From a virus: a stretch of DNA of 64,000 nucleotides. A program made the translations under genes and the position numbers. This document shows positions 8,142 to 51,434 of the stretch, in pieces; positions within the stretch are counted from its first letter, which is position 1, and every line of letters starts with the position of its first letter. Below the pieces are notes generated by a model. The model was not told the origin of the DNA. It was given only the letters and a program-made list of their open reading frames with translations, and did no database searches. The stretch is from IMG/VR virus record IMGVR_UViG_3300045970_000046, positions 11,120-75,119 of that record; one strand, written 5' to 3'.

Positions 8142-8144
8142 TAG

Positions 8145-10277: not shown

Positions 10278-10726
10278 TGGAGCCGACGTTCGTTTACGGT
10301 GGTTATCATACGGCTACGAGGTACCATGACATTTCGTGCGGACACAGAGTCGTCGGCCATGAAGGCAAGTGCCGGTTCCTACATGGTCATAATTATCGCG
10401 TGCATTTTACTTGCCGCGCTAGAAATCTGGACAGCGTTGGCCGGGTAGTAGACTTCGGTGTTATCAAAGAAGCCTTATGCATGTGGCTAGAGGTGCATTG
10501 GGACCATAAGATGTTACTATGGGACCAAGACCAAATGTGTGCTGCGTTCGAAGTTGAGGATGTAGACTATGTTCCGGTACCGTTTAATCCAACCGCCGAG
10601 AATATGGCCGAGTATTTAGTTCGGAACGTAGCACCCGCGCAGCTTGGCGACCTAGATGTAGAATGCTTCCGCGTTACTATCGAAGAAACCTCTAAGTGCT
10701 CCGCTACCTACGAGATTCAAAAATGA
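10277..10726 (+). CDS. queD: 6-carboxytetrahydropterin synthase
   Basis: C..LHGHNY, VDFG, DHK, NPTAEN, EET. Confidence 0.93.
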   Translation: MEPTFVYGGYHTATRYHDISCGHRVVGHEGKCRFLHGHNYRVHFTCRARNLDSVGRVVDFGVIKEALCMWLEVHWDHKMLLWDQDQMCAAFEVEDVDYVPVPFNPTAENMAEYLVRNVAPAQLGDLDVECFRVTIEETSKCSATYEIQK

Positions 10727-18967: not shown

Positions 18968-19198
18968 TTATTTTACCGGCTCTGGGTTAACAACACTCGG
19001 TGGAGCTAACCACCATCCCCTCGAGGCCCGGATTTTACATCTCGTCCAAGAAACATCTTCAGGACCGTGGCACCAGATTTCTAAGTCGGCATCGCTAGCT
19101 ATCTGGTGGACCTGACCTTCATCCGGGAGGACGATCCTTTTCGGGCAACCCACGGATAGCAGCACCAACCCGAGCAAACCGAGCTTTTTGATCTTCAT
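18968..19198 (-). CDS. lipoprotein, o-spanin candidate
   Basis: MKIKK, hydrophobic core, LSVGC lipobox; two further Cys. Confidence 0.7.
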   Translation of the reverse strand: MKIKKLGLLGLVLLSVGCPKRIVLPDEGQVHQIASDADLEIWCHGPEDVSWTRCKIRASRGWWLAPPSVVNPEPVK

Positions 19199-29005: not shown

Positions 29006-30322
29006 TTAACCCGGGAGTAAACCAGGAAGCTGATTATTAATCAGGAAGTTCAAGGCGTCAATAGTAGCTTGGTCTGTAGTACCATTCAGGACTATAGCAG
29101 CGTATTCGCTAATAGCCTTACGTGTCTGGAAAACTTCCATTGTTGCCTGAATCGTAATATACTGCCCTATCTTACTTGCAACCTGAACACTCCCTGGAAG
29201 GAAACGAGCCGTACATTCAGAAGGAGTGGAAGAATCTAGTATTAGATCAACCTGGAACGGTAGAGAACAATCTCGAAGTCTACCGTAGAGTAACCAGAAA
29301 ATTTTATAGTCTGTGGGATTTAGCTTCCATTTAGCCGTTACAATAGACGAGGAATTTTGGATACCGGGACTATACCGACTTAGACCAATTCCATATTCGA
29401 TACTGATAACTTCGTCGTCTTTATCGGTAACGGTATATCCGTCCTGCAGTGGAACAAGGTATAGCTTCCGTGCCGGAGAATCCGTAGCTACTGAAGCATG
29501 ACCCGAAGCTGAACCACCTAGACCAACAGGCCCGTAGGTTCGAATATCGTCTTTAGTGGAAGCATGACCCGCGGCTGTACCTGTAAGGTCTACGGTACGA
29601 GATGTATGAGGTAAGGCCGTAGCTCCGGCATGACCTCCGGCGGTACCTCCCAAAGGAACAGGACCGGTAGTCTCTCCGGTTACATCCGCATGTCCGCCAG
29701 ACGTACCCCCTAGTAGAACGTCGGTCTGTAGCCCTGTGGCCACAGCACCCGCGTGACCAGAAGCTACCCCTGAAAGTGGAATACTGCTTGGGTTCGTCCC
29801 GAAATAACCGGTAGGTACAATTTGAATGGCAGCTGTACCTCCGTCTGTACCTACGAAGTGGATAGGTGCTAGTTTAAGTGAAACCGTTGAATTATCAGTG
29901 CTAGTAAACGAGAGTAATGTACCAGAGGTATCTAGTACATCGGCCGTAGCCGTTATATCTACTACTGTACTATGACCGGAGGCTGTACCGGATAGCCGTG
30001 TAGGTACAGTATACGAGAGTACGGACGTTAAAGCACCGCGACCACCAGCGGTACCGGCTAGTGAAGTAGGCCCTGTACTCGTCACACCGGCTGTTCCGGA
30101 ACCATGACCGGCAGACACACCACCTAATGACGTCGCTGTTGGAAGTTGAGTTGTTACCGTAGGACTAGATACAGTCGCCTGTCCGGAAGCGGTCCCGGAA
30201 AGCGGTATACGTATAGATTCTACCGTCACGTCATTAACAGTAATGGCTCCAGATCCGGGTACTACCCGTAAGGATAGAGTTGCATTACCTAGCGGTAACG
30301 TGAGGGTAGTTATAACCTTCAT
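29006..30322 (-). CDS. repeat stalk protein fused to a C-terminal Dit/gpM-like domain
   Basis: about nine xxL(S/G)G(T/V/S)(A/S)xGH repeats; C-terminal domain resembles ORF 37800-38162. Confidence 0.75.
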   Translation of the reverse strand: MKVITTLTLPLGNATLSLRVVPGSGAITVNDVTVESIRIPLSGTASGQATVSSPTVTTQLPTATSLGGVSAGHGSGTAGVTSTGPTSLAGTAGGRGALTSVLSYTVPTRLSGTASGHSTVVDITATADVLDTSGTLLSFTSTDNSTVSLKLAPIHFVGTDGGTAAIQIVPTGYFGTNPSSIPLSGVASGHAGAVATGLQTDVLLGGTSGGHADVTGETTGPVPLGGTAGGHAGATALPHTSRTVDLTGTAAGHASTKDDIRTYGPVGLGGSASGHASVATDSPARKLYLVPLQDGYTVTDKDDEVISIEYGIGLSRYSPGIQNSSSIVTAKWKLNPTDYKIFWLLYGRLRDCSLPFQVDLILDSSTPSECTARFLPGSVQVASKIGQYITIQATMEVFQTRKAISEYAAIVLNGTTDQATIDALNFLINNQLPGLLPG

Positions 30323-31941
30323 GGAGTAGCCGGAAGTGTAAGTGTATCTACTACAACACCGTTAACTAGAACTTCCACCTGACCACCTGTCGGAGAAGTG
30401 GCGTCAAGCTGCAACTGTAGGGGACGAGTCAGAGAATTCACAGTTTGAATATCCAGACCGGTGTCAGGGTTTAACGGTGCATTCAATGATATGGTACCAC
30501 CGTCTACCACAATACAATGCTGATTTGAAACCACCCCTACCTGAGAATCAACATCGGCCAGGTAGTCTCTAGTTCCAACCAGACCACCTACAGTTCTGGC
30601 TACTACGCGTACCTGCCAGTAATCGTCACCCCATGAGGTTAATTGATAGGCGTTATCGGTCCATCTGGAAACAGGTGGACCCTGATATACGCGTGTACCG
30701 TTAAGCCATAGCTCCACTTGGTTTACTGTATCGGAAGAACAGAAAGCTCCGAGGTCAACACTTACAGTACCACGAACTTTTATATGAAGCAACCCTTCGG
30801 AATGCGTATCTTCGATCCCAATATCGTTATGAGCAACATTGTACCAGTCATCTGTATGCGTCTCCCCACGCCCCTTGAGGCGTAGATACGGAAAGACTTT
30901 ATTGCTATTTCCTGGGAGCGTTGATTCAGCCTTCAGTACGGCGAGTTCTGCGTCAACTACACCGACCCCTGCGGCAGTATTGTAAAACATATCTACTTTC
31001 CATCCCTTTTTAGGTCTGGTAGCTGTCGAGATTAGTATATTTCTAACCTGTTCATTTGTTAGTGAGGGATTTTTCGCCCACACAAGTTGAGCAACACCAC
31101 CAACCACAGAGGCGATATTAATCAGATTTGGGTTCCAAAAACCTACTGTTCCAGGAAAGGGAAACTTACCGTTTTCGTGAATAGCCGAAATTCCCATATG
31201 GATCTGAGAGGCCAGTATGTCTACACGAGGTCCGTACTGGCCTCGGTAGGTGGATCCGGGATGCAGCATACTAAAGACACACCGGGCCTCATCGTCAATC
31301 CTAACTCCTCCAACACATAGAACGTGCGGGGCATCACTAGGGCTGTAGGCGGTAGCTGTTGGATTAGCTATAAATGTTTCATCGTCTCCAATATAAGAAA
31401 CGACTAGGCATCCAGCCGACCACGCATTGGCAACGGCAAGGGCTACAGCCGAGCCGGTAACGGTAGGACCAGCCGGGGCTGTTGGATGGACGGTGACGAT
31501 TACACGAGCGCCTGATGCAACGAGAAAATCTATCCCAGCTGCCATCGCCGAGGCACTTACACCCATGGCGAGCTGAATCCCATCTACTGCCGTCGCTAGA
31601 GTAGCTTCCGGGGCAACACCGTATAACCGTCCGGTTCCACCCTTACCTACAAGAGTAACAGCCGGATTGATAGAGTAGCTACCTCCACCACGGCCACTAT
31701 TGATATTAGTCCCGCCGGTGGAGATATTCCGAGCAGCTATAACCTTACCTGTTAGTTCAGGGGTGTTGGGAAAGAAGTTAGGGTAGGATCCAGCCTCGCC
31801 AGGATATTCAGCACATATAAGTCCAATAGGAAAGGTTGCCGCTCCCGTACCTATTGTCCACGCCTCGTATACATGGGACCGCTGGAACGTATGCTGCCTA
31901 CCAAACAAGGTGCTCTGATATGGGAGCTTATACCGGATCAT
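30319..31941 (-). CDS. catalytically degenerate S8 subtilase
   Basis: YGVAPEA, GPRVDILA, GVAQLVW.KNP.LT.EQVR.IL..TA kept; D, H and S motifs lost; start MIRYK at 31941 after GAAGGAGGAG. Confidence 0.8.
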   Translation of the reverse strand: MIRYKLPYQSTLFGRQHTFQRSHVYEAWTIGTGAATFPIGLICAEYPGEAGSYPNFFPNTPELTGKVIAARNISTGGTNINSGRGGGSYSINPAVTLVGKGGTGRLYGVAPEATLATAVDGIQLAMGVSASAMAAGIDFLVASGARVIVTVHPTAPAGPTVTGSAVALAVANAWSAGCLVVSYIGDDETFIANPTATAYSPSDAPHVLCVGGVRIDDEARCVFSMLHPGSTYRGQYGPRVDILASQIHMGISAIHENGKFPFPGTVGFWNPNLINIASVVGGVAQLVWAKNPSLTNEQVRNILISTATRPKKGWKVDMFYNTAAGVGVVDAELAVLKAESTLPGNSNKVFPYLRLKGRGETHTDDWYNVAHNDIGIEDTHSEGLLHIKVRGTVSVDLGAFCSSDTVNQVELWLNGTRVYQGPPVSRWTDNAYQLTSWGDDYWQVRVVARTVGGLVGTRDYLADVDSQVGVVSNQHCIVVDGGTISLNAPLNPDTGLDIQTVNSLTRPLQLQLDATSPTGGQVEVLVNGVVVDTLTLPATP

Positions 31942-34354
31942 AAACTCCTCCTTCAATGTTACCGGAGATATCAATCCCGTAGAATTGTAGCTTTCCCGAC
32001 TGGGGCGTAAGCGGAGCAAGATACGTGCTCCACGCTCCAGAACCCCACCGGTACCTAATTGTTACAGGAGCATTCTCACTAACAGACGACAGTATGATAG
32101 TACCACGGGTGGCGGTAGGCCACGAAACCGTGGTAAGTGGAGCAGCAGCTGCAGAGGTGTGACCAATAACGTCGACATACTCCTGCTCGACGGTAAGCGT
32201 AGAGGTTCTAGCAACTAATTTTAGAAGATTCCCAGCTAGAAGTCCGGAGTTCAAAGGGATTAGCGAGTCCCATGTAGTTCTAGCCCCTCCTTGGTAAACC
32301 ATTGTAGATCCGGCCCATAATTCCAAGGAGGTAATAGGATCCGAAGAATAGGCTATGAGCTCTACATATATAGTTCCATGGAGATGAACGGTAGGAACCC
32401 CCGAGCTCCAAACTACAGCATCACTGATAAGAATGGGAATATACCGCCCCATGATATCTCTTTTAAAGAAATTGCAGTAAGGAAAGATATGTCCTGCAAA
32501 CTCCGGGACTAATGACAGCGCCTTGCTAACGGCCTTTCCTGCATTCCAAATACCCGGTAACTCAGGAAATAATGTTGTAAAATCTGGATTCTGAGGCTTA
32601 TCCCAAGTATCTTTAGCTATCTGACAGATCTGAAGCCCCGTTAAATCCATGTTAGCTGAACCGATTAGGGCACAAATTCCCACTGAAAAGGGGGTAGCAG
32701 AAGACGTACCGTTAAAATAGGTGTAGTCCACTAGAGCGTTGTTTGGATTAGAAGGAGTGAACCACTCGAAATCGCTATCTATAGCTCCGGACGTTGCGAT
32801 CCCAGTTCCAGCCTGGTGGTAGACAGAGGCTAGAATCTGATGTCCATGAGCCACCGCATTAACCTTAGGACCGTAATTTGAATAGCAAGCACGCTCGTCA
32901 AGCCGGGTGGTCTCTAGACATCCAACAGACAAAAATCCATATTCCTTACAAAGATTTCCGGGACTTCCCGACATGCCCGTAGAGTAATTACACGCGGCAA
33001 ATAGGGCTGCGTCGCCGCGATCTCGGAGCAGGTCGAATGTTGTCCTATACTCCGCCAATAATCCACCGGTAGAAGTGTACGCAGAGCCCCAGGAATTATT
33101 CGAAATTTTAGCCCCCAACAGGGAACCCATTATCAGGCCCTCTGTTAGAGCCACAATGGTGACATAAGTTTCTCCCGGGGCTAGTTCCGTCCGCCAAGAG
33201 AAACCATTACAGCTAAACAAGGAGCATTCAGGAGCGACGCCAACAGGCCCGGCCTTTAGAGGTGAGGATCCTACGTAGTCCGGTTTGTTAGCGTTAGCCA
33301 AAATGACACCGGAGCAGCAGGTCCCGTGAGTTGCGGATCCAGCCGAATTATCCGTGCTGGGCCCGAATACCCCCTTACCGGGATTAAAACGGATTACTTT
33401 CTTTCCGGCAAACGCAGGCCACTGCTCTGCCGCAGTTGGGTAAAGGGGGCCTCCAGGGACTCCTAGGGTCGGATCACTAGCGGGACCCGTAAATGTAGAG
33501 TTAATTATTAATCCAGAATCATTTACCGTGACTAAGAAATCCGGGTGCCCCATCGTATACTTCCACGCCGAAAAGACATCCGACCGTAAGTGAGAATACT
33601 GTCTGGGAAGAGCCGCATCGCTGGCCCCATGGTATTTGCGTTTGGAAGTTTGATAGTTAGGGAGCCTAACATTAGTCGTAGTAGCCGAAGCGTGGGCTGT
33701 ATCTACAGATGTTCTTGGCCCAGAGGAGGAAGCCCGCAGCGAAATATAACGGCCTTGTTTGGTACCTTCTACAGAAATTGTAGATGAGGGAACAGGCCCT
33801 GCACTCGGTTGCACCATACTCCATATACCTAACCCGTGGTTGAGTGCGTCAGGTCCTAACAAAATATCTGTAGATAGCGGAGGACCTACAGGCGTAGTCC
33901 ACCACGTACTCAGAGTATCATAGTCATAACTAAACTCGTAATTATGGGCTAATAACAGAACAAGGCTGTTCTGCCCTAAAGTCGTAATTGAAGGAACAAC
34001 TAGATCCGTGTATACAGTGATGTCGGGACTTGTGGCCGTAGCGAGCGAACCCACAACCTCTATCGGGGCTGTGGGATCACAATCTCTATAGGCCGCCATA
34101 ATAATATAGCCTGTACTATGGGCTATGTCGACGTTTTCATCAGTTAATACTTTGTAGCAAATAGCGAAGAAAGTTGAAGTTCCTCCCGCAGAATTTGAAG
34201 CTCCTGGGACTAGGGTCCAACCTGTAGGAGCCGAGCTAGTTCCGGTGATGAAGGCTATAACTACATCACCAGCTTCGAGACCCGAGGGTACACCTTCCTT
34301 AGTGGGATCATCCCCACGGTACTTCCCTGTACTTACAAGATATGGGATTCTCAT
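31928..34354 (-). CDS. S8 subtilisin-like serine protease with tail-protein N-domain
   Basis: VNDSG, HGTCCSG, GVAPE, NNSWG, AACN, GTSSATP. Confidence 0.9.
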   Translation of the reverse strand: MRIPYLVSTGKYRGDDPTKEGVPSGLEAGDVVIAFITGTSSAPTGWTLVPGASNSAGGTSTFFAICYKVLTDENVDIAHSTGYIIMAAYRDCDPTAPIEVVGSLATATSPDITVYTDLVVPSITTLGQNSLVLLLAHNYEFSYDYDTLSTWWTTPVGPPLSTDILLGPDALNHGLGIWSMVQPSAGPVPSSTISVEGTKQGRYISLRASSSGPRTSVDTAHASATTTNVRLPNYQTSKRKYHGASDAALPRQYSHLRSDVFSAWKYTMGHPDFLVTVNDSGLIINSTFTGPASDPTLGVPGGPLYPTAAEQWPAFAGKKVIRFNPGKGVFGPSTDNSAGSATHGTCCSGVILANANKPDYVGSSPLKAGPVGVAPECSLFSCNGFSWRTELAPGETYVTIVALTEGLIMGSLLGAKISNNSWGSAYTSTGGLLAEYRTTFDLLRDRGDAALFAACNYSTGMSGSPGNLCKEYGFLSVGCLETTRLDERACYSNYGPKVNAVAHGHQILASVYHQAGTGIATSGAIDSDFEWFTPSNPNNALVDYTYFNGTSSATPFSVGICALIGSANMDLTGLQICQIAKDTWDKPQNPDFTTLFPELPGIWNAGKAVSKALSLVPEFAGHIFPYCNFFKRDIMGRYIPILISDAVVWSSGVPTVHLHGTIYVELIAYSSDPITSLELWAGSTMVYQGGARTTWDSLIPLNSGLLAGNLLKLVARTSTLTVEQEYVDVIGHTSAAAAPLTTVSWPTATRGTIILSSVSENAPVTIRYRWGSGAWSTYLAPLTPQSGKLQFYGIDISGNIEGGVYDPV

Positions 34355-34752
34355 TAGGTGAACCGAAAAGACGGATTAGATACTCGTAAGATATCTCCAG
34401 TATCACTCATCAGCCTTGTCTTATGGCCTAGTTCTAAAATGGCGATTAAGGCTCCGGAGGTTCCGGAGGCAACCGTGACAAGTCCGATATACCGGATAGG
34501 TACGGCGGCTGTAAATCCAGTAAATTCAAAGTTCCCCGAGCACGTAAACTGGCCTGCAACAACAGTCATATTCAACTGTGGACAATTAATTCGAGAGTAT
34601 GTCCCAGTTACGGCAGTAACTTCCGCCATATTCGCCAACGTGGTAGTATCGGATCTATCCGTTAGAGCCGCTAAATAAATACCGCCCGGCAAGGACGCGA
34701 TAAGTGCAAGACTTAGGGCCTGAGAACCCTCGATAGGAATTACAACGGCCAT
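34354..34752 (-). CDS. fibre/appendage subunit, paralogue of 37200-37772 and 51051-51434
   Basis: YL.....AEVT..GTYSR...F......IGL....SG.LIA. Confidence 0.65.
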   Translation of the reverse strand: MAVVIPIEGSQALSLALIASLPGGIYLAALTDRSDTTTLANMAEVTAVTGTYSRINCPQLNMTVVAGQFTCSGNFEFTGFTAAVPIRYIGLVTVASGTSGALIAILELGHKTRLMSDTGDILRVSNPSFRFT

Positions 34753-34991
34753 TATTGTGTCTCCACTAATGACTCGAACCAGACATTGGCCACAGCAGGG
34801 TGGGCTTCATAACGAAGGATTGCCGTGGATACGTTTGCGGTACCGACAAAAACCTCTAACACCATCGCGTTCGGATACATATTTAGCGTACGTCCCCCAC
34901 ACTCCTGAACTACACATAGACCTAGATCCTGGTCCCAATACTTCAGTCGTACCATCAATCTATCTAGTAGTATAGGGAGGGCCATATCCAT
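34752..34991 (-). CDS. hypothetical protein
   Basis: 79 aa, tightly packed in the operon. Confidence 0.55.
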   Translation of the reverse strand: MDMALPILLDRLMVRLKYWDQDLGLCVVQECGGRTLNMYPNAMVLEVFVGTANVSTAILRYEAHPAVANVWFESLVETQ

Positions 34992-34993
34992 AC

Positions 34994-35989
34994 CTAGTAT
35001 GATAAGCCACCTAGTTTAATGTCGTAAATTAGTCCGGATCCGAAGAGGTATAAGAACGTGCTCGCCGGAGTAGGCCAAGCACCAGCCGTATTTAAGGTTA
35101 CGTTTTGAATCCCATCTATGAAAGATAAAGTAGCACTCGTTCCCAGTCGGAATTCTATCCTGTATAGTTTATTTACCAACGGAGTTGGAACTAGATTAAT
35201 TTGTTCTAAACCACCAGCTACACTAATACCAGACCAAGTCCCTAGCTCAGAGTCGTACCCAGCAGAGAATCCGTTTGTATTGGATAATAGAGTCTGCAAG
35301 CTTGCGGCGGTAGTATAAGTGCTTCCAGACAGCAAGGAAAATAGTCCGGAGCCATTGATACTATTCGTGGTCCTAGCGGCGCACCTAAATTCGAGATACC
35401 AAGGAGCGTCCTGCATTCCGGTAATACTAGCCTTAATAACGTCCGCGCCAGCCATGGTGACTATACCAGCCGAAACCGTAGGGGCACCTGCTACAATAGA
35501 GAACTGACCTAGAGTATTGGATGCAAAATCTTCATAGAGGACAACGCTGGGAGTGGTTTGAATAGTTAGAGTACGAGGACTCGCGAATAAGGCCGAAATA
35601 TTACCAGCCGCGTCTTTGGCCCATGGGTAGAACGTTACGGATCCACGACCCTCCGCAATCCAGGAAGTTGGCACAGTAGCTACCCACTTAGGATCTGCGG
35701 GGGACGGTTTAGTAGCGGATTCTGTAATTAAGTATCCTGCTATACCGCCAGCATGCGTTGCGTTAAGATTGTTAATCAGAATACGAGCCCCGAGATGGGC
35801 TGTGTCATTGGCGTAGAGATTAAACGCATTCATTGAGGGAAGAGTATCTTCCACCGTAAAGGACCTACCGGAGACTACCACCGTACCGTTTACTTTCATA
35901 TCAACAGACTGAGCACCCCCGGCCATAGCTACATCCGGAATGGACCAATTTCCTGCCCCGTCAGCCGTAGTGGACCCAAGTAAAGCCAT
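34994..35989 (-). CDS. Ig-like / lectin-like appendage protein
   Basis: LLGSTTADGAGNWS half-Ig; GYLITESATKP...WAKDAAGN Ig module; C-terminal beta-sandwich. Confidence 0.7.
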   Translation of the reverse strand: MALLGSTTADGAGNWSIPDVAMAGGAQSVDMKVNGTVVVSGRSFTVEDTLPSMNAFNLYANDTAHLGARILINNLNATHAGGIAGYLITESATKPSPADPKWVATVPTSWIAEGRGSVTFYPWAKDAAGNISALFASPRTLTIQTTPSVVLYEDFASNTLGQFSIVAGAPTVSAGIVTMAGADVIKASITGMQDAPWYLEFRCAARTTNSINGSGLFSLLSGSTYTTAASLQTLLSNTNGFSAGYDSELGTWSGISVAGGLEQINLVPTPLVNKLYRIEFRLGTSATLSFIDGIQNVTLNTAGAWPTPASTFLYLFGSGLIYDIKLGGLSY

Positions 35990-35991
35990 AG

Positions 35992-36993
35992 CTATGTCCC
36001 CGTATCGTAAATAGTAACAGTTGATCCGGCCGCCGCGGTACCCGAGAACGTAACGGAGGCCGATGTAGTCTGACCAGCGGTCGGTGTTGCAAGTGTGTTC
36101 GAAACCGAACCACCTGAAATACTGACGGTTGAGGTTGCCCCCGCAATCCCAGCTCCGCTTCCCGCGATAGGCGCCGGAGCCCCCGTCTGGGTTCCGCTGC
36201 CACCAGAGCCAAGGCCTCCAGCCGAACCACCAAGAGATACTGTAGTAGCTGGTGCACTGGTAGTATCGGCCTGACCACCGGCAGCCCCGGAGAGGGCCGA
36301 GTCTACGATAACCGCACCGGCCGAATGTATCTCAATCGTCGCGTTAGGAACGACGACGCCGCTGAATGTAACCAAGGCCCCAACAGTAGACCCTTCAACC
36401 GGGAATTCCATAGACGCATCGGAGCCCGTCGATAGAGTCCCAAAAGATCCAGCCTGACCAGCGGCGGTACCACCCTGTGGACCAGAAGTTGCCGCGGTTC
36501 CCTGTCCACCGGCGTGCCCCACGGAGGTCCCAGAGAGAGGAACAACCTGAGACAACGGGGCCGTAGCACCGGCCCGACCACCAGCCGTAGCTTGTAACGG
36601 AGTTTGACCCGGTGTTGTTGTAGATATCGGACCTAGTTCGTTACCGTGGCCACCCGCTGTACCACCTAGGCCAGTAGAAACACCAAGAGCGGCGGTGGTT
36701 CCCCCTAAACCACCTGCCGCGCCTGTTGTTTTCCGTTCAGTGGATAGAATCCCACTTACATCTGCGTGACCCGACGTTGTTCCACCAGCTCCACCAGTGT
36801 CTAGTTGAGCACTAACGGTGGCCCTACCCGCAGCCGTTGCTTCTAGTATAAGTCCGAAGGGTAAAGGTGATTCCCAATAACCTGAACTGTTGGCCTGAAC
36901 AGGAGTAAGAGCCTGGCCGGCGACGGTAGGCGTCACAAAAGCGTTTGGAGTGGTTGAACCCCAAACCTTTACTCCACCAATCTGAACAGGCAC
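35992..36993 (-). CDS. Gly/Thr/Ala repeat protein with partial Ig domains
   Basis: about ten LxGT(A/S)xG(H/Q/R)A repeats; ends SGTAAAGSTVTIYD; GGAGG RBS with GTG start. Confidence 0.75.
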   Translation of the reverse strand: MPVQIGGVKVWGSTTPNAFVTPTVAGQALTPVQANSSGYWESPLPFGLILEATAAGRATVSAQLDTGGAGGTTSGHADVSGILSTERKTTGAAGGLGGTTAALGVSTGLGGTAGGHGNELGPISTTTPGQTPLQATAGGRAGATAPLSQVVPLSGTSVGHAGGQGTAATSGPQGGTAAGQAGSFGTLSTGSDASMEFPVEGSTVGALVTFSGVVVPNATIEIHSAGAVIVDSALSGAAGGQADTTSAPATTVSLGGSAGGLGSGGSGTQTGAPAPIAGSGAGIAGATSTVSISGGSVSNTLATPTAGQTTSASVTFSGTAAAGSTVTIYDTGT

Positions 36994-37008
36994 GAAAACC
37001 TCCGGAAA

Positions 37009-37188
37009 CTACTTCGTACCGGTAGAACTAGCCGCGCGGGCCGTACCAGATAACGGAGTAACTTTTCCGGTAGTCTTCTCCTTCTGACCTGCGTTACTGG
37101 CCCCCTTAGCATCACCGCTTAACTTAGTGGGAGGAGTTTGAACACATGAACAAAGGACGACTACTAGAGCCACTAGAAGGATCTTCAT
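37009..37188 (-). CDS. 59-aa lipoprotein carrying two stalk repeats (not in ORF track)
   Basis: MKILLVALVVVLCSC lipobox, then TKLSGDAKGAS and TPLSGTARAAS. Confidence 0.65.
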   Translation of the reverse strand: MKILLVALVVVLCSCVQTPPTKLSGDAKGASNAGQKEKTTGKVTPLSGTARAASSTGTK

Positions 37189-37199
37189 AGTGGCACCGA

Positions 37200-37772
37200 T
37201 TACTGCTCTGTAACGTGAAGCGCCCCTGCCGTAAACGACGCCGTCGAGTTCTGCGTAACGGCTACAGGGGCGTTATTCACAGCACCCCAGTAGAGTAGGT
37301 TACCGGCGGTAGCTGCATCGTAAATCCCAAAGCACTGAACGGACCACGAAGTACCGCTGCTGTTAGTCCAGGCGGCGCTACCGGAAATGGAACCGGCATT
37401 AACGTACTCGTCGGTATTCGTGTAGGTATTGCAGTTACCGGTACCGGAACCAGTGCAGCAGGTAAACGGCGCCTGGCTAGTGGTGCACGCACCGTTGGTC
37501 GCGTGTGTCCAACCGGTACCATTAGCGATAGCCGCCGAACGAGTAGTATATCCGGGTTGCGAACCGCTATTAAATTCAACTCCGGCGGTACCAGCCGCAG
37601 GGCACGTCGAGAATAACCCGACATAGGTATTGACCGGAGCCGAGAACGCCGTATTACCGAAAATCTCACCAAGCACCTTAGCCGAAAGATACGAATACTT
37701 CCCACCGGCCACGGCTAACAGCGGAAGAACTAGGGCGAGGGCAACAACTGCGAACTTCTTATTAAACTTCAT
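37200..37772 (-). CDS. fibre/appendage subunit with signal peptide and Cys-rich insert
   Basis: GAAGGAG RBS; MKFNKKFAVVALALVLPLLAVA; YVGLF...FGIYDAATAGNLLYWG..F.AGAL.V. Confidence 0.75.
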   Translation of the reverse strand: MKFNKKFAVVALALVLPLLAVAGGKYSYLSAKVLGEIFGNTAFSAPVNTYVGLFSTCPAAGTAGVEFNSGSQPGYTTRSAAIANGTGWTHATNGACTTSQAPFTCCTGSGTGNCNTYTNTDEYVNAGSISGSAAWTNSSGTSWSVQCFGIYDAATAGNLLYWGAVNNAPVAVTQNSTASFTAGALHVTEQ

Positions 37773-37799
37773 CGGATACTCCTTCAAGCGGTGGAACAG

Positions 37800-38162
37800 T
37801 TAGGAAACGATAGCTAAAGTAGCCTTAACAAGATACTGATCTCCGTGAATCTCCGCCAACTTCATCGTACCTTTTACGAATTGTACAGTATGCTCAGATA
37901 TTGTAGGATCGTCTACCAATAAATTGATCCGAAAAGCTGATGCCGTAAACTGGACTAACCTATAAAACGCACGAATATAATCGTATTCTTGAGCATTACA
38001 ATACCATGTAACGTCAATATGAGGCAATGTTTTATTTATAGGCTTAATTGAAGCCCTCCGGAATTTAGAGAAGCCTCCTTCAACAGCGAACTTTATTACA
38101 TCAGCCTCAAATGTAATCCTATAACCTGATTCTTCCGGTGTAAGGTCTAGGGCTATAGACAT
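37800..38162 (-). CDS. distal tail (Dit / gpM-like) protein
   Basis: directly after the tape measure; GY...GG.S.FRR...V.W...F.I.L. Confidence 0.7.
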   Translation of the reverse strand: MSIALDLTPEESGYRITFEADVIKFAVEGGFSKFRRASIKPINKTLPHIDVTWYCNAQEYDYIRAFYRLVQFTASAFRINLLVDDPTISEHTVQFVKGTMKLAEIHGDQYLVKATLAIVS

Positions 38163-41100
38163 TAGCGCTTCCGTCCAGTCGTAGTATGCGACGAGAGGGC
38201 CTTACTGACTCGACTATTAGCGTTTATAATATCTCTGGCCACAATGCTAGGTGTATGCGTCTGGACGGCGGCCAGGGCCTCTTCGCGGGCGATAATCCGA
38301 ATATCGTTCCCATTACGTTCAACACTGATATTGGAAGGTGTGTAATTCTCAATTTTCACGTTAACTTGGGTTCCGCTGGCGCCCGCCTTACCGGGGGATC
38401 CCCCACCACCCGCACCAGAGGACCCCCTATTTAGAGCCTCTAGCATTGGACGGTAGCGCCGGGTAGCCTCGGCATTAACAACATACTCCTGCCCATGGAC
38501 TAGTCCAGCTACTTCACCTGTAGGACCATCACCGGTGTAGCCACCGACCATATAACCGGTAGAGATAAGATCACGCTTTACCGTAGAAGTTGTATCTAGA
38601 GCTTGGTAAGTAGACTTATTCTGGAATGTCGAATTAGTAGACGAGCTATACGACCTGAACATCTCGGGTGTAATGGTCTTGCCCTTGTTTAGATCTTCTA
38701 AGAGAGGGCGGTTCTTTTTAGTAGCGGTGGCGTTAAGTACATACTCCTGACCGTGATAGAAGCCCGCTACACTATTAACGGGACTATCACCGGTGTAACC
38801 GCCAGACTTCATTCCAGCCCCACCGATAGCTGCTGCGATAGCCGCGGTAGAGAGCATCGATGCGTCAGCCGCTAGACCAGCCGCGCCGAAGGTCGCGATA
38901 CTCACAAGAGCTGCCGGTCCTGCCCACATGGCCCCCGTTTCGGCGGCCATGGTAGCTCCGGCTGCCGTTGCGGTCGCCATACCCATAGTGGCTATAGCCC
39001 TGTTAACGAGGAATTGTAGGCCAATCTTAATTAAGGAGCTAAGTAATTCGGCTAGGATATTACGAGATATATCACCTAACGTCTTTTCTAGGTTTTCACC
39101 GAATACAATAGCTCTTGCGAACGCCGTACCAATACCATCTATTAACTGTGTGACGGGTTTCGCAAAGGTGGAGCCTAACTGACGGGCGAAGTCAGTGGTA
39201 CGTCGGCTAAGTAGGTCGATCTGTTTAAGCATACCGTCGAAGAAGGTACCTTCTCCGGACTGTATATTAGCTTCCGCTTGTAAATCGCGGAGGTCCATCT
39301 TAACACTCTGTATCCCAGATTCCACCGCTCCCCAATCCGTTTGACCAAAGATTGGAGTAGCATACGTATTTCCGGTTTCCCAGTCGCTAACCGGATTCAC
39401 GTGACCAATTACAGGGGTGTTATCTTTAATCAACTGAGCTGTAGACTTCTCTAACACTTCTTTGTTAACCTGTTCTTGGACCTTAGGCTTTTCGGCACGA
39501 CGATTAATCGTACTATAGAGACGGTCTACTTCCTGTGCTATACGCTTATACTCGGCCCTCTCTTCCTGTAGTTTATTAATACGAGACTGGGCTGCAAGCT
39601 CATTAGTTGTAGGTACGTGGCCAAGCTCCCGTTTAAGTTTAAGCTCATCCTCCATAGCTTGAAGTAAGCCCTTACGGGCTGCGGAGGACCCCTTGTAAAT
39701 ACTAATCTCGCGTTCAAGAGCGGCTTCTAATGTCTCAAGTGGGAATAGGGCTTCCTTAGAATGTTCCACATAAGCGGCGAGTAACCTGTTACGCTCTGCC
39801 ATCGTAATAAGCGTCTCTTGTGTAACAGTACCGTCAGGTTGCACAACAGGGGCGGCGACCGGCAGGGCTGCAGAGGCGTCTAATAATCCCTTAGCTTGGT
39901 CTAGGCGGATCTGAGCTGCAAAGACAGGACTCATCTGTTTCTGAATCTCTTCTAGGCCGCGCTTGTATTCTTCAATCTTGCCTTTGTCTAAAGCAAAGAT
40001 GGGTTTCTTGGCATCTTTACTGATATCGTCCTTAGTCCCCTTATTAGCGGCGTCTGTACGGGCTTTAGCCGTCTCCCGGAACTTAGAAATAAGCCCATCT
40101 AACTGGGACATTACGCCATCGGTCCAATCCCCAATACGATCACCACTGAAGGACCAAGTCTTTAACTTCTCCATATCAGCTAAGAGTTTATCGAACGAAC
40201 CCTTAGCATTATTTTCTACTTCAAACTTAACTGGAGTAATGGTTGCCGTAGTGCCAAAGAGTTTCTTAAAGATAGCACTTTGGGCTACAGAGTTTAGCCC
40301 ATCTATAAGTGTATTTATGATAGGAGCGGCTAACTGGGCTAGGCCGCTAAGAGCTTGTGAGAAGATATCCGTGAGTACACTAGGTATGCTACGGAGTAGT
40401 AGAGGAATAAGATTAGCTACATAGTCTACACTACCCAGAATACCATTCAGGATCCCCTTAAAGATTGTTATCGTCGCCTTTGTAATCCATTCAAAGAGGC
40501 TATAAATCTTACGTTCAATAAAGACGAGTAGTTTATCCCAACCGCTCAAGGCCTCTATAGGATCGATACCCTGAGGCTTATGCGACGACATACTAGATGT
40601 TACAGAAGAGGCCTGAGGAGAAGAGGCTAGTGAAGCTCCGCTGCCCGGGGCCTGTCCTTGGACTAGAGTAGATTGTACCGTCTTAGCTATTGTATTCTGA
40701 AGAGTAGAACCGCTCGTAGGACTAGTATTATCCTTGAAAACGTCAGTCTTATAACCGGCCCTCTTATTTAGATCGCGTGTAATTAAGGCGATATAAAGCT
40801 TAGTTTCATCGGCTAATTGATCGAAGACGGTAGTTAGATCCTTAGTCTTATCTAAGAGTTTTCCACCGTTAACTTTATCGGCCCGGTTAGGTCCGCCGTT
40901 ATAACCAGCTAGGGCTTTCTCTACACTACCATCGAATTTATTTAATAGCTCACGGAGGTAAGACGTACCTCCTTCGATATTATTCTTTGGAACATTTGGG
41001 TTAACACCCAAATCCGCAGCAGTCTTTGGCATCAGCTGCATTAAGCCAATCGCTCCAACAGGTGAAAGAGCGTTTGGATTATTATTAGACTCCTGCTTCA

Positions 41101-44100
41101 TTACGGCCGCTATAAGATGTACGCTTACATCGAACTGCTTAGCCGCATCGATAATATCCTTACCGTAAGGATGACTCGTCATCGAGGCGTCGTCTTTAGG
41201 ATTATAGCCCCAAGCTACTCCCTCTTCAGAACGCGGAACAACCGACGGTACCTGTAACGCGGTGGCCACAGGCTCCGGGGCGCCGAATCCGAGCTTCTGT
41301 AAGAAGGGGAACGTATCGGATACAATCTTACCGAGTGTCCTAAATACGTCACCTAGTGTAATCCCGGCTACTTCGATATTATCCCTAAAGAGGTATAGAC
41401 CTGCGGTCAAAGCCGCTAAAGCAGCTACACTAACACCTAGCGGGTTAGCGGACATAAAGCCAAGCATACCGGAACCGACGGCTCCACCGGCTGCAGCCCC
41501 CACCGCCCCTCTAGTCGCGACTCCACCAGCCGCTGTAAGCGGTGTAACGCCCCATGCCGGTAGAGCAGAAACGGCAGCACCCTGCGCTGTTTGACCAATC
41601 AGTTTAGATATACCAGAAAGGGCCGCGGGAATGGCTAATGCGGCTAGTGCGGCGGCTACCGTACCTAGACTGGCCGCTAGTTTATCGAGGTTACCGCCTA
41701 ACCAATCGATCATCGTATTAAACTTATCGGAAATCTTATAAGCTTCGTTAATCTCTCCTACGAATTTAGTAACATTCGTAGATAGGTTGTTAAAGCCTTG
41801 AGCGAACGATCTCTGAACGGTGTCGACTTCTTTATCAAGTTGACTTGTATCTGCCAAGAAAGCCTTAAACACTACCGACGAATCGATAGTTTCTTCTTCC
41901 TTACCCTTAATAAGCTGCTTCCAGTTTAGACCACCACCACGACGATTCTGTTCTTCTACGGCCTTACGAAACATCACAATAGACTTACTACCACCCTGTA
42001 GATGATCGGCTATACCCTTTAAGATTCTAGGTGTATTTTCTGAAATCGAGTTAAACTCCTGCATACGAATCTTACCCATACCTAGCATCTGACCTAACTG
42101 TAAGAGGGAACCTCTCGCAGCGTCAGCACTGGTACCTTGAATGAGTAAGGCTTTACCGACGTTCTCTACAAATTGGATGGCCGTAGCTTGTGAAGCGCCA
42201 ACGGTTAGGGAGGCCATAGAGATACGACGGTAGAGTGTAACGACGTCGTCAAACGGTTGACGAGTACGTAAAGCGACTTGGACTAGTTCTTCCTGGACAG
42301 CCGTAGCCTCTTTAACACTTGAGGTTGAAAGTCGGACGCTGTTACTGGCGTTAATCCAACCGTCAGCCGATTGCTTTAACTCACGAATCATTAGGAAGCC
42401 CGCAAACATTTCGGCCGCCATCCGGATATACCAGAGTTGGCGAACGAAATGAGCGGCAGAACTAGTGGCCTGCTGGGCGGCCCTGGCATGAGAGTTGTAT
42501 CCGGCAGTCGTCGAAGCTAATGCCCGGCCTGTTCCGTAGATCGCGTTATTATACTGCTGGGCTGTGATTGTACCTTCCCGGTATAGACGGTTAGCGGCTT
42601 CCTGGCGAGCCGTACTAACTCCCGGCGCCGGAGAATTGTACAACGAGTTCAACTTAGCCATCTCGGCATTTAAGGCTACAACGGCCTGTCGCTCTTCGAC
42701 ACGGCTCCTAACAAGTTCCCGATTAGTATTGTTGAGAGGTTGAACTGCCTGACCCGGGGCTGTTGTAGCTTCAGCGACACGGGTATAAGCCCCTTCCATC
42801 TGGACACTACGTTGATATTCCTTATGGGAGGCTACCCCCTTAGCTAGAGCGTCACCTTCCTTATTCAAGGCGGCTACTTCACGATCTAGTTGAGCAATGT
42901 AAGCGTCGATAGAGGTAGTCGTCGCCTGTATCTCGTTTGAAAGCTTACCAGTACCGCTCATTGTAGCTTGTCCGAGTTTACCAGCCGCCGTACCAGCCCT
43001 ATCGAAATCAAGGGTTAGTTGGCCTACACCAGCAGAGGCTAGTTTGGCCGCGGTAGAGATAGTCTTAACTTCGGTGGCCACAGTACCGGCGCGAGAAGCG
43101 GCCTCTTGTAGGAAACGTTCCTGCCGGGCGGAGTCTTCCAACCATGTTACGCCGGTCGACTTATCTGTAAAGTCAAGTTGACGGGTAGTAAGTTCTTCTT
43201 TAGTCTGACCCTTCAAAGCTTGCTTATCAGCACCGGGAGCCGTCAGATTAAGACTCATCTGGGCTTTAGTTTGCGCCGCGGCTAGTTCTTCAGTAGCCTT
43301 CGTCTTCTCACGTAAGGCCCGAGCTTCCGCTAGGATACGTTGTTCCTCGATCGGAGAACCGGCAAACGCCCTACGACCAACATCACGGGAAGCTAGTTCG
43401 TCCTTAATCTCCTGATTTACATCTTTGGGCTTAGTTCCAGGGATCGTCGGAGTAGTGGGTGCGAGTCTACCACCTTGTAGATTCAACGTAAGTTGTTGAA
43501 TGTTCTCGGCAGCTTCTTTAGCCTTAAGGGCAGTACCTCCTAATTGAGCTTCCATTAGAGGCATGAAGCCTAGAGACTGTTGACCTACAGTTCCAAGCTG
43601 ACGCAGCTTAACCGAAAGTATCTCAGCCTCGTCCGTCATCCGCTTAATAGCGAAGCCACGGGAATTACGGTCTACCTCTTCGTTCCAAGGAACACCACCC
43701 GTAGCGAATTCACGCTGGGGTGGGCGCATGGCGTTAGTTGTGGCTAATTCAACTTCACGTTGCCTAACAACATCTTGATAGTGTGCTTTTGTATCCGGAG
43801 GATGAACTACTTCGGGCCGGGCAAACATATCCATTTGCCCAGTAGTACCTAAATCTTTATTAGCGACCTTTAACTGTGCCAGTAGGTCTAACTGCTTCTT
43901 AGTCTTATCCCCAAGCTGGACTAACTGGTTAGAGCACTCAGTAATAAGTGTCCTTGGTTCAACCTTAAGTAATTCCGCACGGATCTGATTTATCTTAGCT
44001 TCGTACTCCGCCATTCCTTTGTCTTTAGGAATAGGCGGAGGCTCGTCCCAAGGATCGGGAAGCTTAGGCCGAGGAACATTCGGTAGGGGTAGTTGAACAG

Positions 44101-44542
44101 GCGGTGGTACAATGACCGGGGCAGGCGCCATCTTAGCACCGAACATCTCACCCTGTTCACCCACAGCCCCCTTAAGAGTAGGGGCGGCCATCGAAGCCAG
44201 CACAGATTTAAACTGTGTGGCTAACCCCATCACACTTTCAAATTCTTTCGCCAGGCCTTCCAGGTCCTTAGTGATCTCTCCGGGGGCCTTACCCCGTAGG
44301 GAATTTAATTGATCCCGTAGTTTTCCAACCGCCGTCGAACTGGTACCTACTTGACTTGTAAGGTCGGTAAACTGTTTTCCCAGTTCCGAACCGGGCTTAA
44401 ACGAAAGGTTTTTTAGATCTCCCTGCAACTCCGATATAACCGACTGGGCCTTTTCGGCAGACTTAGCCACATCCTCGAAACTCCGCGCAACTACACGCGA
44501 ACCAGTTTCGGATATGGATATAAGAATTGTTTCGTCGGCCAT
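38162..44542 (-). CDS. tape measure protein with SLT lytic transglycosylase domain
   Basis: LLQLGQ...EFNSI.EN.P tape-measure motif; QES...SPVGAIGLMQLMP..A, YNGGP; duplicated GGYTGD...HGQEYV. Confidence 0.95.
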   Translation of the reverse strand: MADETILISISETGSRVVARSFEDVAKSAEKAQSVISELQGDLKNLSFKPGSELGKQFTDLTSQVGTSSTAVGKLRDQLNSLRGKAPGEITKDLEGLAKEFESVMGLATQFKSVLASMAAPTLKGAVGEQGEMFGAKMAPAPVIVPPPVQLPLPNVPRPKLPDPWDEPPPIPKDKGMAEYEAKINQIRAELLKVEPRTLITECSNQLVQLGDKTKKQLDLLAQLKVANKDLGTTGQMDMFARPEVVHPPDTKAHYQDVVRQREVELATTNAMRPPQREFATGGVPWNEEVDRNSRGFAIKRMTDEAEILSVKLRQLGTVGQQSLGFMPLMEAQLGGTALKAKEAAENIQQLTLNLQGGRLAPTTPTIPGTKPKDVNQEIKDELASRDVGRRAFAGSPIEEQRILAEARALREKTKATEELAAAQTKAQMSLNLTAPGADKQALKGQTKEELTTRQLDFTDKSTGVTWLEDSARQERFLQEAASRAGTVATEVKTISTAAKLASAGVGQLTLDFDRAGTAAGKLGQATMSGTGKLSNEIQATTTSIDAYIAQLDREVAALNKEGDALAKGVASHKEYQRSVQMEGAYTRVAEATTAPGQAVQPLNNTNRELVRSRVEERQAVVALNAEMAKLNSLYNSPAPGVSTARQEAANRLYREGTITAQQYNNAIYGTGRALASTTAGYNSHARAAQQATSSAAHFVRQLWYIRMAAEMFAGFLMIRELKQSADGWINASNSVRLSTSSVKEATAVQEELVQVALRTRQPFDDVVTLYRRISMASLTVGASQATAIQFVENVGKALLIQGTSADAARGSLLQLGQMLGMGKIRMQEFNSISENTPRILKGIADHLQGGSKSIVMFRKAVEEQNRRGGGLNWKQLIKGKEEETIDSSVVFKAFLADTSQLDKEVDTVQRSFAQGFNNLSTNVTKFVGEINEAYKISDKFNTMIDWLGGNLDKLAASLGTVAAALAALAIPAALSGISKLIGQTAQGAAVSALPAWGVTPLTAAGGVATRGAVGAAAGGAVGSGMLGFMSANPLGVSVAALAALTAGLYLFRDNIEVAGITLGDVFRTLGKIVSDTFPFLQKLGFGAPEPVATALQVPSVVPRSEEGVAWGYNPKDDASMTSHPYGKDIIDAAKQFDVSVHLIAAVMKQESNNNPNALSPVGAIGLMQLMPKTAADLGVNPNVPKNNIEGGTSYLRELLNKFDGSVEKALAGYNGGPNRADKVNGGKLLDKTKDLTTVFDQLADETKLYIALITRDLNKRAGYKTDVFKDNTSPTSGSTLQNTIAKTVQSTLVQGQAPGSGASLASSPQASSVTSSMSSHKPQGIDPIEALSGWDKLLVFIERKIYSLFEWITKATITIFKGILNGILGSVDYVANLIPLLLRSIPSVLTDIFSQALSGLAQLAAPIINTLIDGLNSVAQSAIFKKLFGTTATITPVKFEVENNAKGSFDKLLADMEKLKTWSFSGDRIGDWTDGVMSQLDGLISKFRETAKARTDAANKGTKDDISKDAKKPIFALDKGKIEEYKRGLEEIQKQMSPVFAAQIRLDQAKGLLDASAALPVAAPVVQPDGTVTQETLITMAERNRLLAAYVEHSKEALFPLETLEAALEREISIYKGSSAARKGLLQAMEDELKLKRELGHVPTTNELAAQSRINKLQEERAEYKRIAQEVDRLYSTINRRAEKPKVQEQVNKEVLEKSTAQLIKDNTPVIGHVNPVSDWETGNTYATPIFGQTDWGAVESGIQSVKMDLRDLQAEANIQSGEGTFFDGMLKQIDLLSRRTTDFARQLGSTFAKPVTQLIDGIGTAFARAIVFGENLEKTLGDISRNILAELLSSLIKIGLQFLVNRAIATMGMATATAAGATMAAETGAMWAGPAALVSIATFGAAGLAADASMLSTAAIAAAIGGAGMKSGGYTGDSPVNSVAGFYHGQEYVLNATATKKNRPLLEDLNKGKTITPEMFRSYSSSTNSTFQNKSTYQALDTTSTVKRDLISTGYMVGGYTGDGPTGEVAGLVHGQEYVVNAEATRRYRPMLEALNRGSSGAGGGGSPGKAGASGTQVNVKIENYTPSNISVERNGNDIRIIAREEALAAVQTHTPSIVARDIINANSRVSKALSSHTTTGRKR

Positions 44543-51037: not shown

Positions 51038-51050
51038 GTTTAAGCCGGAC

Positions 51051-51434
51051 TTACGTGATGGAGATAGTTAGGGCGCTGACCGTGTAAGTGCCGTTAGAGC
51101 CGTAAGCACCTTCAGCCGCCGAAAGAGCTCCAGAGCCACAGAAGTCGGCGGCTACACCAGCCGCAGCGATACGCCACAGGCCGTAATGACTGAAGGCGTC
51201 ACCGGCCTGGACGGAGATAACGGCACTTGCCCCAAGACCCTTGCTACCAGCCGCAGCCGCAGCCATATTTAACTGGACGCGGGCATACGGGGCTCCGGAC
51301 ATCTCGTTAGCCGACGCTGTCGCGAACACACCGGCCGGATCGGCACTGTGTAACGAGATATAGGTACCGGAGGAAGCACCCGTACCATAGCGCTGATCGA
51401 GTTCGTAGTTACGGGCATCTACTGACTGGGGCAT
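51051..51434 (-). CDS. fibre/appendage subunit
   Basis: YISLHSADP...ANE.SG..YAR, HYGLW, GTYTV..LTI. Confidence 0.7.
   Translation of the reverse strand: MPQSVDARNYELDQRYGTGASSGTYISLHSADPAGVFATASANEMSGAPYARVQLNMAAAAAGSKGLGASAVISVQAGDAFSHYGLWRIAAAGVAADFCGSGALSAAEGAYGSNGTYTVSALTISIT

Follow-up and report, generated by a model that had tools for sequence, protein, structure and literature searches.

A fibre bead with a Sec-type leader and an adjacent candidate lipoprotein rope in the late operon of a siphovirus

The two genes analyzed here, A190 and B59, are neighbors on the minus strand of a 64,000-nt stretch of viral DNA, hereafter the window, which comprises bases 11120-75119 of the IMG/VR record IMGVR_UViG_3300045970_000046. 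A190 encodes a fibre bead of the Gp80/whisker type that carries a Sec-type leader and is very likely exported, cleaved between A22 and G23, and oxidized. The product of the following gene, B59, is likely a lipoprotein, and it may provide the strand that completes the bead. The source record of 75,119 bp is rated complete by CheckV and stems from an uncultured phage known only from pond metagenomes. The 2.4 kb around A190/B59 were present without a single difference in two pond-metagenome DNA runs, which are possibly its source, and no RNA data set was among the public runs listed for this region. The pair had been singled out in an initial annotation made from the sequence alone, and its position and content were as described there (Table 1).

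A190 belongs to the family PF23140, which it matched with 62.7 bits against a gathering cut-off of 27 (E 5.8e-17). A profile built from its relatives matched GP4 fibre I (8jou_a) in the PDB with an E value of 6e-21. The AF2 model of A190, with a predicted local distance difference test (pLDDT) score of 67, consists of a disordered segment (residues 1-20), an N-terminal helix (residues 27-38), and a beta-sandwich, with 13 strands. When this model was searched with Foldseek, GP4 fibre I 8jou_a ranked first (E 1.2e-4, TMt 0.71), followed by the whisker chains of Bas63 (9mt4).

The N-terminus of A190 has, by rule, the features of a Sec precursor, that is, a basic n-region (K2, K5, and K6), a hydrophobic core of 16 residues (F7-A22) where 7-15 or more are expected, and small residues at positions -3 and -1 (A20-V21-A22, followed by G23). 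Leaderless relatives begin with M-A-G-S-K-S-D-Y-L-E, which aligns with A22-G-G-K-Y-S-Y-L-S of A190. Thus, the leader is a clean N-terminal addition, and its cleavage would restore the canonical N-terminus of the family. It is conceivable that the leader is never used, either because the product starts at the GTG codon of V21 or because the hydrophobic N-terminus takes part in assembly within the cytoplasm; in that case, A190 would be a usual cytoplasm-assembled bead and B59 untranslated. A start at V21 would indeed give M-A-G-G-K, the usual N-terminus of the family. A start downstream of the leader was not borne out, however, as the strong Shine-Dalgarno (SD) sequence AAGGAG serves the upstream ATG at a spacing of 6 nt, which fixes the start of A190 before the leader, and no SD sequence precedes the GTG.

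An exhaustive HMMER search of the family returned 4984 members, and leaders were assessed among the best 158 of them. Sec-type leaders were recognized in ten of these 158, and three further leader-bearing beads were found in IMG/VR loci (L046, L065, and L067). Their AxA-like junctions coincide in the alignment and fall precisely where members of the family normally start. Only ordinary, leaderless beads were present in the loci that the family profile retrieved (42 from metagenomes and 7 from genomes), and a viral-contig scan with the relative P0080 yielded leaderless beads only. Viral-contig scans queried with A190, D331, the J-like protein, P0014, and P0044 gave no matches. Judged from these alignments, the leader is not a product of chance, for it recurs in about a dozen relatives.

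The cysteines of A190 are located at positions 57, 96, 105, 106, 114, and 147. Those between residues 95 and 114 lie in an insert that is absent from all close relatives and is modeled with low confidence by AF2. As the initial annotation had stated, alignments showed both the leader and this insert to be absent from the two proteins that it had proposed as paralogues within the window. We counted cysteines in single-domain members of fewer than 200 aa, 12 of them with and 55 without a leader. An even number of cysteines (at least two) occurred in 12/12 leader-bearing but 0/55 leaderless members (p 2e-13), and a cysteine in the S-T-C-P column in 11/12 versus 0/55 (Fisher p 9e-12), with the caveat that kinship inflates both tests. 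For this reason, a maximum-likelihood tree of the mature domains was built. On this tree, the leader trait needs at least four changes (gains or losses), and the leader-bearing members form three separate groups with two different positions for the second cysteine. In the A190 clade, the first cysteine is paired with that of V-N-C-F-G; in the clade of P0118, L065, and L067, it is paired with a cysteine one strand later; and P0071, the third group, has cysteines at other positions. P0003, which is nested in the A190 clade, is leaderless (start M-A-G-G-K) and has lost both cysteines. Such repeated, coupled gain or loss of leader and cysteines is a signature of folding in an oxidizing compartment. 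Export and disulfide folding of the subunit, as proposed initially, are thus strongly supported by the recurrence of the leader and its strict coupling to cysteine pairs, and we hold the export, cleavage, and oxidation of A190 with high confidence. The conservation of the leader across divergent relatives, together with cysteine pairs that would be senseless in the reducing cytoplasm, makes an unused leader very improbable.

B59 fills nearly all of the 206 nt that separate A190 from the following stalk gene. Its start lies 11 nt past the A190 stop, with a weak SD sequence (GGTG) 5 nt upstream, and 15 nt remain between its end and the start of the stalk gene, whose GGAGG is located there. The codon-usage log-odds of B59 (0.27) correspond to the 71st percentile of 59-codon windows from the real genes of this phage and exceed every off-frame window, including all 358 stop-free ones. 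We found no homologue among 5.8 billion protein clusters, where B59 is not a called gene. Of the two properties named in the initial annotation, translation is therefore backed by codon usage and very probable, whereas conservation found no backing. The weak SD sequence and the missing homologues would suit an untranslated B59 behind an unused leader; its codon usage, which is typical of the phage genes, does not.

The N-terminus of B59 fits a lipobox pattern of the PROSITE PS51257 style ([LVI][ASTVI..][GAS]C behind a short basic and hydrophobic leader), in agreement with the lipoprotein (VLCSC) described initially; the Cys at position -2 is atypical, and Cys15 stands at the early limit. On both strands of the window, an n/h-region followed by a lipobox occurred in only two open reading frames (ORFs) of at least 40 aa, namely B59, adjacent to the leader-bearing A190, and an ORF at 18968-19198. 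Neither Pfam nor PHROG assigned B59 to a family, and a match to PF06085 or to the PHROG spanins was not obtained; its neighbors are the fibre bead and a stalk protein, with no i-spanin-like partner. Its neighbors in the ESM-Atlas are generic small lipoproteins, all below 0.9, a sub-threshold result that serves as a lead only. B59 is likely a real lipoprotein, and from the lipobox we infer a lipid anchor.

The mature part of B59 resembles the stalk proteins C333 and E438. These contain 16 copies (7 and 9, respectively) of a unit of ~22 aa, [TV]PL[SG]GTA[SG]G[HQR]A, which are spaced about 20-25 residues apart. No Pfam or PHROG match was obtained for C333. A hidden Markov model (HMM) of the 16 units scored the mature part of B59 with 10.0 bits, a value beaten by 0.1% of 2000 composition-preserving shuffles, and plain BLASTP was not significant (E 0.12). 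The two half-copies in B59 are 23 residues apart, which equals the stalk period, and both lack G[HQR]A, the second half of the motif. Hence, the claim that B59 contains two copies of the stalk repeat stood for the period and the first half-motif, not for the second. The 16 stalk units may be docking sites for Gp80-type bead dimers, in which case C333 and E438 would be siphovirus rope proteins.

Beads of this fold are incomplete beta-sandwiches that are completed by an extended rope strand passing through their grooves; they dimerize via their N-terminal helices and first residues and are strung as "beads on a string" (PMC12609058; PMC13730344). Five bead dimers sit on a separate rope protein in GP4 and two on the N-terminal extension of the collar in Bas63 (PMC12609058), while eleven are held by the nozzle-rope protein of A1002 (PMC13730344). 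In the published chain-like fibres, the genes for bead and rope lie side by side (PMC12609058; PMC13730344). Since the beads need a completing strand, an exported bead should need an exported strand. Complex predictions were run with two mature A190 chains plus mature B59 and with three controls, two of which were unrelated peptides of similar length. The A190 dimer with B59 scored 0.67, 0.58, and 0.61 (median 0.61), and the controls 0.08, 0.00, and 0.01; in the calibration, the mark for this score was reached by 58/80 solved complexes and 2/110 mismatched pairs. The runs shared at least 44% of the contacts, with a partner pLDDT of at least 41. In the predicted complex, B59 residues 17-37 run along residues 145-150, 161-166, and 170-190 of both A190 copies, beside their N-termini, and the lowest-error contacts connect B59 residues 21-27 (T21-A27, repeat 1) with A190 residues 145-148, 161-166, and 178-185. 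As similar bead-rope complexes have already been solved, a passing score shows likeness and not binding. The suggestion that the subunit is held by the lipoprotein repeats thus gained a controlled prediction (0.61 versus 0.08) and published rope-completed beads, with confident placement of repeat 1 only. On these models, we lean towards a binding of B59 by A190.

Alternatively, the two proteins may be independent exported accessories, A190 being a soluble secreted or periplasmic glycan binder and B59 an unrelated small lipoprotein of the Rz1/colicin-lysis or Cor/Llp kind. Both the repeat likeness and the predicted contact would then be low-complexity artefacts. Such a view accommodates an orphan B59 rich in Gly, Ser, Thr, Ala, and Lys that matches just the first half of the stalk motif, its non-significant BLASTP result, its ESM-Atlas neighbors, which include Rz1 and colicin lysis proteins (all <0.9), and the bead of L065, which has no exported neighbor. 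It does not account for a complex score that exceeds all three controls by 0.53, nor for a motif match better than 99.9% of the shuffles at a spacing identical to the stalk period. The genes are, moreover, just 11 nt apart, an i-spanin-like partner is not nearby, and beads of this fold need a completing strand (PMC12609058). We consider two unrelated functions improbable.

As our preferred explanation, which we put forward tentatively, we propose that A190 is a bead of the GP4-gp80/Bas63-whisker family that has been turned into an exported protein. Signal peptidase I would cut after AVA22 and regenerate the canonical N-terminus needed for dimerization, and the bead would be oxidized in the periplasm, forming the Cys57-Cys147 pair and two extra pairs in the A190-specific insert. 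The next gene, translationally coupled, would yield an extended lipoprotein of 44 residues, whose two half stalk repeats would constitute a short rope. By threading the open groove of the bead dimer with its residues from about 17 to 37, B59 would complete the beta-sandwich and thereby tether the dimer to a membrane of the infected Gram-negative cell. On the envelope, the tethered complex could function as a late-made, Llp-like "lytic conversion" module for which the phage would have drawn on its own fibre parts. By occupying or masking what the virion beads recognize on the envelope, the complex would diminish superinfection and the loss of progeny on cell debris. The localization and the masking are steps that we infer, and the explanation as a whole, including an envelope-resident function, is possible rather than probable.

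Periplasmic maturation with subsequent loading onto the virion is only a little less likely. A190 would then be exported just for its disulfides, and B59 would be a membrane-tethered placeholder rope whose half-motifs bind weakly and keep the incomplete sandwiches soluble. Once holin and lysis have mixed the compartments, the oxidized dimers would move to the virion ropes C333 and/or E438, which would result in a chain-like tail appendage. Cleavage of the leader restores the exact N-terminus by which virion beads dimerize, and A190 is the only clear PF23140 member of a cassette with 16 full repeats that are half-carried by B59. We know of no tailed-phage virion subunit that is delivered from the periplasm, however; dilution at lysis would make loading inefficient, and a lipid anchor is odd for a chaperone, as it would hold the beads on debris. 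We therefore rate this route as unlikely.

The genomic setting bears on both proposals. According to Pfam and PHROG matches, the minus strand of the window carries a siphovirus late operon. This operon encodes both terminase subunits (small and large), portal, scaffold, major capsid protein, adaptor, tail terminator, major tail protein, chaperone, and a tape measure protein of 2126 aa. After the tape measure gene, the operon is interrupted by a nine-gene cassette that contains A190, B59, two Gly/Thr/Ala-rich stalk proteins, small beta proteins, and two S8-type proteins, and it resumes with DUF1833, a J-like tail protein, and a fibre of 1760 aa. The Dit-like domains that flank the cassette are homologous (120-aa ORF versus E438 residues 287-397; 25% identity, E 3e-10), which suggests an insertion by duplication or recombination. 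When the surroundings of A190/B59 were scanned for promoters and terminators, the counts were not above those of shuffles. A 9-bp hairpin with a weak U-tract is located at 36943-36966 (-), 43-66 nt 3' of the B59 stop and within the first codons of the stalk gene. The replication module includes genes for DNA polymerase, helicase, single-stranded DNA-binding protein, and Sak4 as well as 7-deazaguanine genes; its own replication and 7-deazaguanine genes suggest that the phage is virulent. The nearest portals (~53% identical) belong to phages of Variovorax, Pseudomonas, and Stenotrophomonas, so that the host is probably a Gram-negative proteobacterium; a close relative of the phage was not found in the phage database. 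The position of the pair inside the late fibre cassette of an apparently virulent phage, without a promoter of its own, is in line with virion loading.

The two paralogues that the initial annotation had proposed in the window fared differently. The 127-aa protein matched PF23140 with 22 bits, below the cut-off, as well as phrog_240, and hhalign aligned it over its full length (E 0.0034); these three results support its paralogy. For the 132-aa ORF of the A190 cassette, the likeness came from ESM-Atlas features, in which 27/30 of the nearest clusters were PF23140 (score 0.95); hhalign against the bead family was negative, homologues were not found, and the single-sequence fold (pLDDT 45) was unusable. 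This ORF may be a leaderless bead for cytoplasmic ropes, and a second bead candidate in the same cassette speaks against loading of A190 onto the virion.

A co-exported neighbor stands beside three of the four leader-bearing beads with a known setting (A190, L046, and L067; not L065). In L046, a BPP-1-like podophage fragment, the bead and its neighbor (7953-10714) are encoded in the head module between the portal/Bbp19 and scaffold genes. The neighbor, which follows the bead after only 5 nt, is a lipoprotein of 760 aa with an L-A-A-C lipobox and a CHB_HEX_C_1 domain (chitobiase/hexosaminidase C-terminal type). A bead with a large exported carbohydrate-binding lipoprotein at this site looks like an accessory insert, which disfavors a virion role. 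L065 and L067 are proviruses (92% and 100% complete), in which the bead gene lies after the lysis genes and before fibre-like genes. In both records, the leader-bearing bead is the only PF23140 gene, which keeps the virion role alive. No exported neighbor follows the bead in L065. In L067, the next gene (8550-8882) encodes a 110-aa protein with its own signal peptide. This protein has a Cys-rich C-P-x-T-G…C-P-G-W-x-I-D-H motif that looks HNH-like by eye; it matched neither Pfam nor PHROG. The second gene past the L067 bead belongs to phrog_13925, and its product is 28% identical (E 2e-18) to the 311-aa protein encoded after the window's leaderless 127-aa bead; such a location of the L067 bead fits a virion role. 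The neighborhood of bead and 311-aa phrog_13925 protein is kept between the window (50102-51434, leaderless bead) and L067 (8013-9821, leader-bearing bead), and the two phrog_13925 proteins share an N-terminal K-H...W-N-x-D-H motif.

Several of these observations count against an envelope-resident function or against the steps leading to it. Leader and lipobox were called by rules (n/h-region, -3/-1 residues, pattern); the Cys at position -2 of the B59 lipobox is atypical; and, with no homologue, B59 has no support from conservation. The complex score may reflect the model's memory of the solved GP4/Bas63 complexes, and only repeat 1 was placed with confidence, at a low partner pLDDT. The pair lies in the middle of the operon, surrounded by fibre genes, where promoter signals do not exceed chance, and the phage looks virulent, possessing its own DNA polymerase, helicase, and 7-deazaguanine genes. 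To these are added the sole beads of the two proviruses and the phrog_13925 homologue near one of them. Finally, the lipoprotein would have to be exposed on the cell surface for a periplasmic complex to get to a glycan there. Of the two destinations offered in the initial annotation, the virion at lysis or the surface of the infected cell, each thus has evidence on its side. We nevertheless slightly prefer the envelope role, for three reasons: B59 would be a lipid tether, its counterpart in L046 is a carbohydrate-binding lipoprotein, and the 132-aa ORF may supply a leaderless bead for cytoplasmic ropes. Independent functions and an unused leader fit the data poorly. The most far-reaching form of virion loading would be a two-compartment assembly in Caudoviricetes, in which Sec-exported, DsbA-oxidized Gp80 beads are parked on a lipid-anchored rope and loaded at lysis, and which evolved several times in one family; we regard it as doubtful.

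Table 1. Features of the A190/B59 locus, its cassette, and related genes in the window
Feature	Position	Strand	Basis or remark
A190, 190-aa Gp80/whisker-type fibre bead precursor (PF23140)	37200..37772	(-)	Pfam
A190 putative signal peptide, codons 1-22	37707..37772	(-)	Basic n-region, hydrophobic core, AVA/G
Shine-Dalgarno AAGGAG, 6-nt spacing to A190 ATG	37779..37784	(-)	Sequence reading
GTG codon for V21, possible internal start of a leaderless bead	37710..37712	(-)	No SD in front; weighed only as a rival
Cys57, first partner of the conserved pair (S-T-C-P)	37602..37604	(-)	Column comparison
Cys147, second partner of the conserved pair (V-Q-C-F-G)	37332..37334	(-)	Alignment
A190-specific Cys-rich insert, residues 95-114 (Cys96, 105, 106, 114)	37431..37490	(-)	Alignments
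B59, orphan 59-aa lipoprotein gene, proposed lipid-anchored mini-rope	37009..37188	(-)	Codon usage, lipobox
B59 putative lipoprotein signal	37144..37188	(-)	M-K, 10 hydrophobic residues, lipobox L12-C13-S14-C15 (VLCS/C15); pattern screen
B59 repeat 1, TKLSG, residues 21-25	37114..37128	(-)	HMM; core of predicted bead-groove contact
B59 repeat 2, TPLSGTA, residues 44-50	37039..37059	(-)	HMM; DNA repeat with 36584-36603
C333, Gly/Thr/Ala-rich stalk protein, candidate virion rope	35992..36993	(-)	7 repeat units
132-aa leaderless protein in the A190 cassette, possibly a cytoplasmic Gp80-like bead	34354..34752	(-)	ESM-Atlas features only
E438, 9 stalk repeats and C-terminal Dit-like domain, distal boundary of the cassette	29006..30322	(-)	phrog_384
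120-aa Dit-like domain protein, proximal boundary of the cassette	37800..38162	(-)	phrog_384
Interrupting nine-gene cassette, after the tape measure gene	29006-38162	(-)	
127-aa leaderless remote Gp80 relative, next to head-tail connector genes	51051..51434	(-)	Three results
Relatives with leader architecture and AxA-type junction: P0002, P0011, P0014, P0016, P0044, P0067, P0071, P0080, P0118, L046, L065, L067			

Further observations concern other genes. An Ig-like domain looks split between the end of C333 and the next ORF (34994-35989), which starts 2 nt later in another frame (junction 35987-35994, minus strand). Two independent run assemblies (depth 132 and 16) had no indel at this junction, so that an assembly error is not the obvious cause; frameshifting could occur here, or the domain could truly be divided. 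In two other loci (L076, 1518-2459; L077, 1300-2222), a leaderless bead gene is directly followed by a gene for a Thr/Ser/Ala/Val-rich, rope-like protein of 176-182 aa, an order that fits the rule of a rope gene following a bead gene. The tape measure protein (38162-44542 (-)) contains an internal lytic transglycosylase/endolysin-like domain at residues ~1122-1322, with PHROG matches to endolysin and lytic tail proteins. At 8502-12611 (+), genes resembling QueE, QueC, and queuine tRNA-ribosyltransferase are clustered with a GTP cyclohydrolase gene, which suggests that the phage DNA is modified with 7-deazaguanine. The second ORF with a lipoprotein-type leader (…L-S-V-G-C) encodes 76 aa on the minus strand and belongs to a group of short ORFs that lie downstream of the gene for the 1760-aa fibre; its product may be a spanin. 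None of these short ORFs had PHROG matches, and the region 17.5-19.9 kb was, with no such matches, not confirmed as a lysis cassette.

Bead-on-rope ("chain-like") fibres were recognized only in cryo-electron microscopy structures of 2023-2026 and have been described as cytoplasm-assembled virion parts. Our literature search found no paper on leader-bearing members of the bead family or on a lipoprotein rope. At the A190 locus and in about a dozen relatives from at least three lineages, the bead appears to have repeatedly acquired a secretion signal together with disulfide cysteines. It would follow that either parts of virion appendages mature in a compartment other than the cytoplasm, a new route of assembly, or phages reuse their own receptor-recognition module on the envelope, a new class of lytic conversion or exclusion. 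The leader/cysteine signature offers a simple rule for finding more cases, and B59 illustrates how an unannotated micro-ORF may be the missing half of a structural module.

Among known systems, Rz1-type o-spanins and colicin lysis lipoproteins resemble B59 in being very small, with a short, partly Pro-containing mature part, and they are among its nearest named ESM-Atlas clusters (0.84-0.85). Unlike Rz1 o-spanins, B59 has no adjacent or embedding i-spanin gene, and its neighbor is a beta-sandwich bead instead of a coiled-coil type II membrane protein. Morons of the lambda Lom/Bor type are exported, envelope-directed proteins that are encoded in late or lysis regions, possess their own promoters, and are expressed from prophages. 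As with these, exported genes interrupt the structural or lysis order here, and the beads of L065 and L067 directly follow the lysis genes. The folds are unrelated, however, and A190, whose phage is apparently virulent, is paralogous to a virion part.

Llp of the lytic siphophage T5 is a disulfide-containing lipoprotein that is encoded beside receptor-binding genes and blocks the receptor from the periplasmic side of the outer membrane (PMC9586334). B59 resembles Llp, and Cor of T1/phi80, which confer lytic conversion or superinfection exclusion, as a small lipoprotein beside siphophage receptor-recognition genes. The likeness is functional only, since Pfam, PHROG, and homologue searches revealed no similarity of B59 to Llp or Cor. 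Llp is an early product, a folded domain of 61 residues with direct binding to FhuA. For B59, which is located in a late operon, an extended shape is predicted, with a co-exported phage protein as its partner.

The closest counterparts of A190 are GP4 fibre I (gp80), the collar whiskers of Bas63 and Sf14, and A1002 gp40/gp41 (PDB 8JOU, 9MT4), with which it shares the Pfam family and the fold, including the N-terminal helix and the incomplete beta-sandwich. Further parallels to the fibres of GP4, Bas63, and A1002 are the predicted dimer with a strand in its groove, the adjacency of the bead gene to that of the (here proposed) rope, and the repeat-bearing rope candidates nearby. A1002 gp41, of which the first ~33 residues are not visible in virions, was considered as a precedent for a cleaved leader and rejected, because the N-terminus of the KPP25 orthologue is acidic and non-hydrophobic, with no signal peptide. 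All beads described so far lack a signal peptide and are assembled in the cytoplasm onto virion proteins. A190, in contrast, has a Sec leader and three potential disulfides, and its nearest rope candidate is a 59-aa lipoprotein with two half-repeats only.

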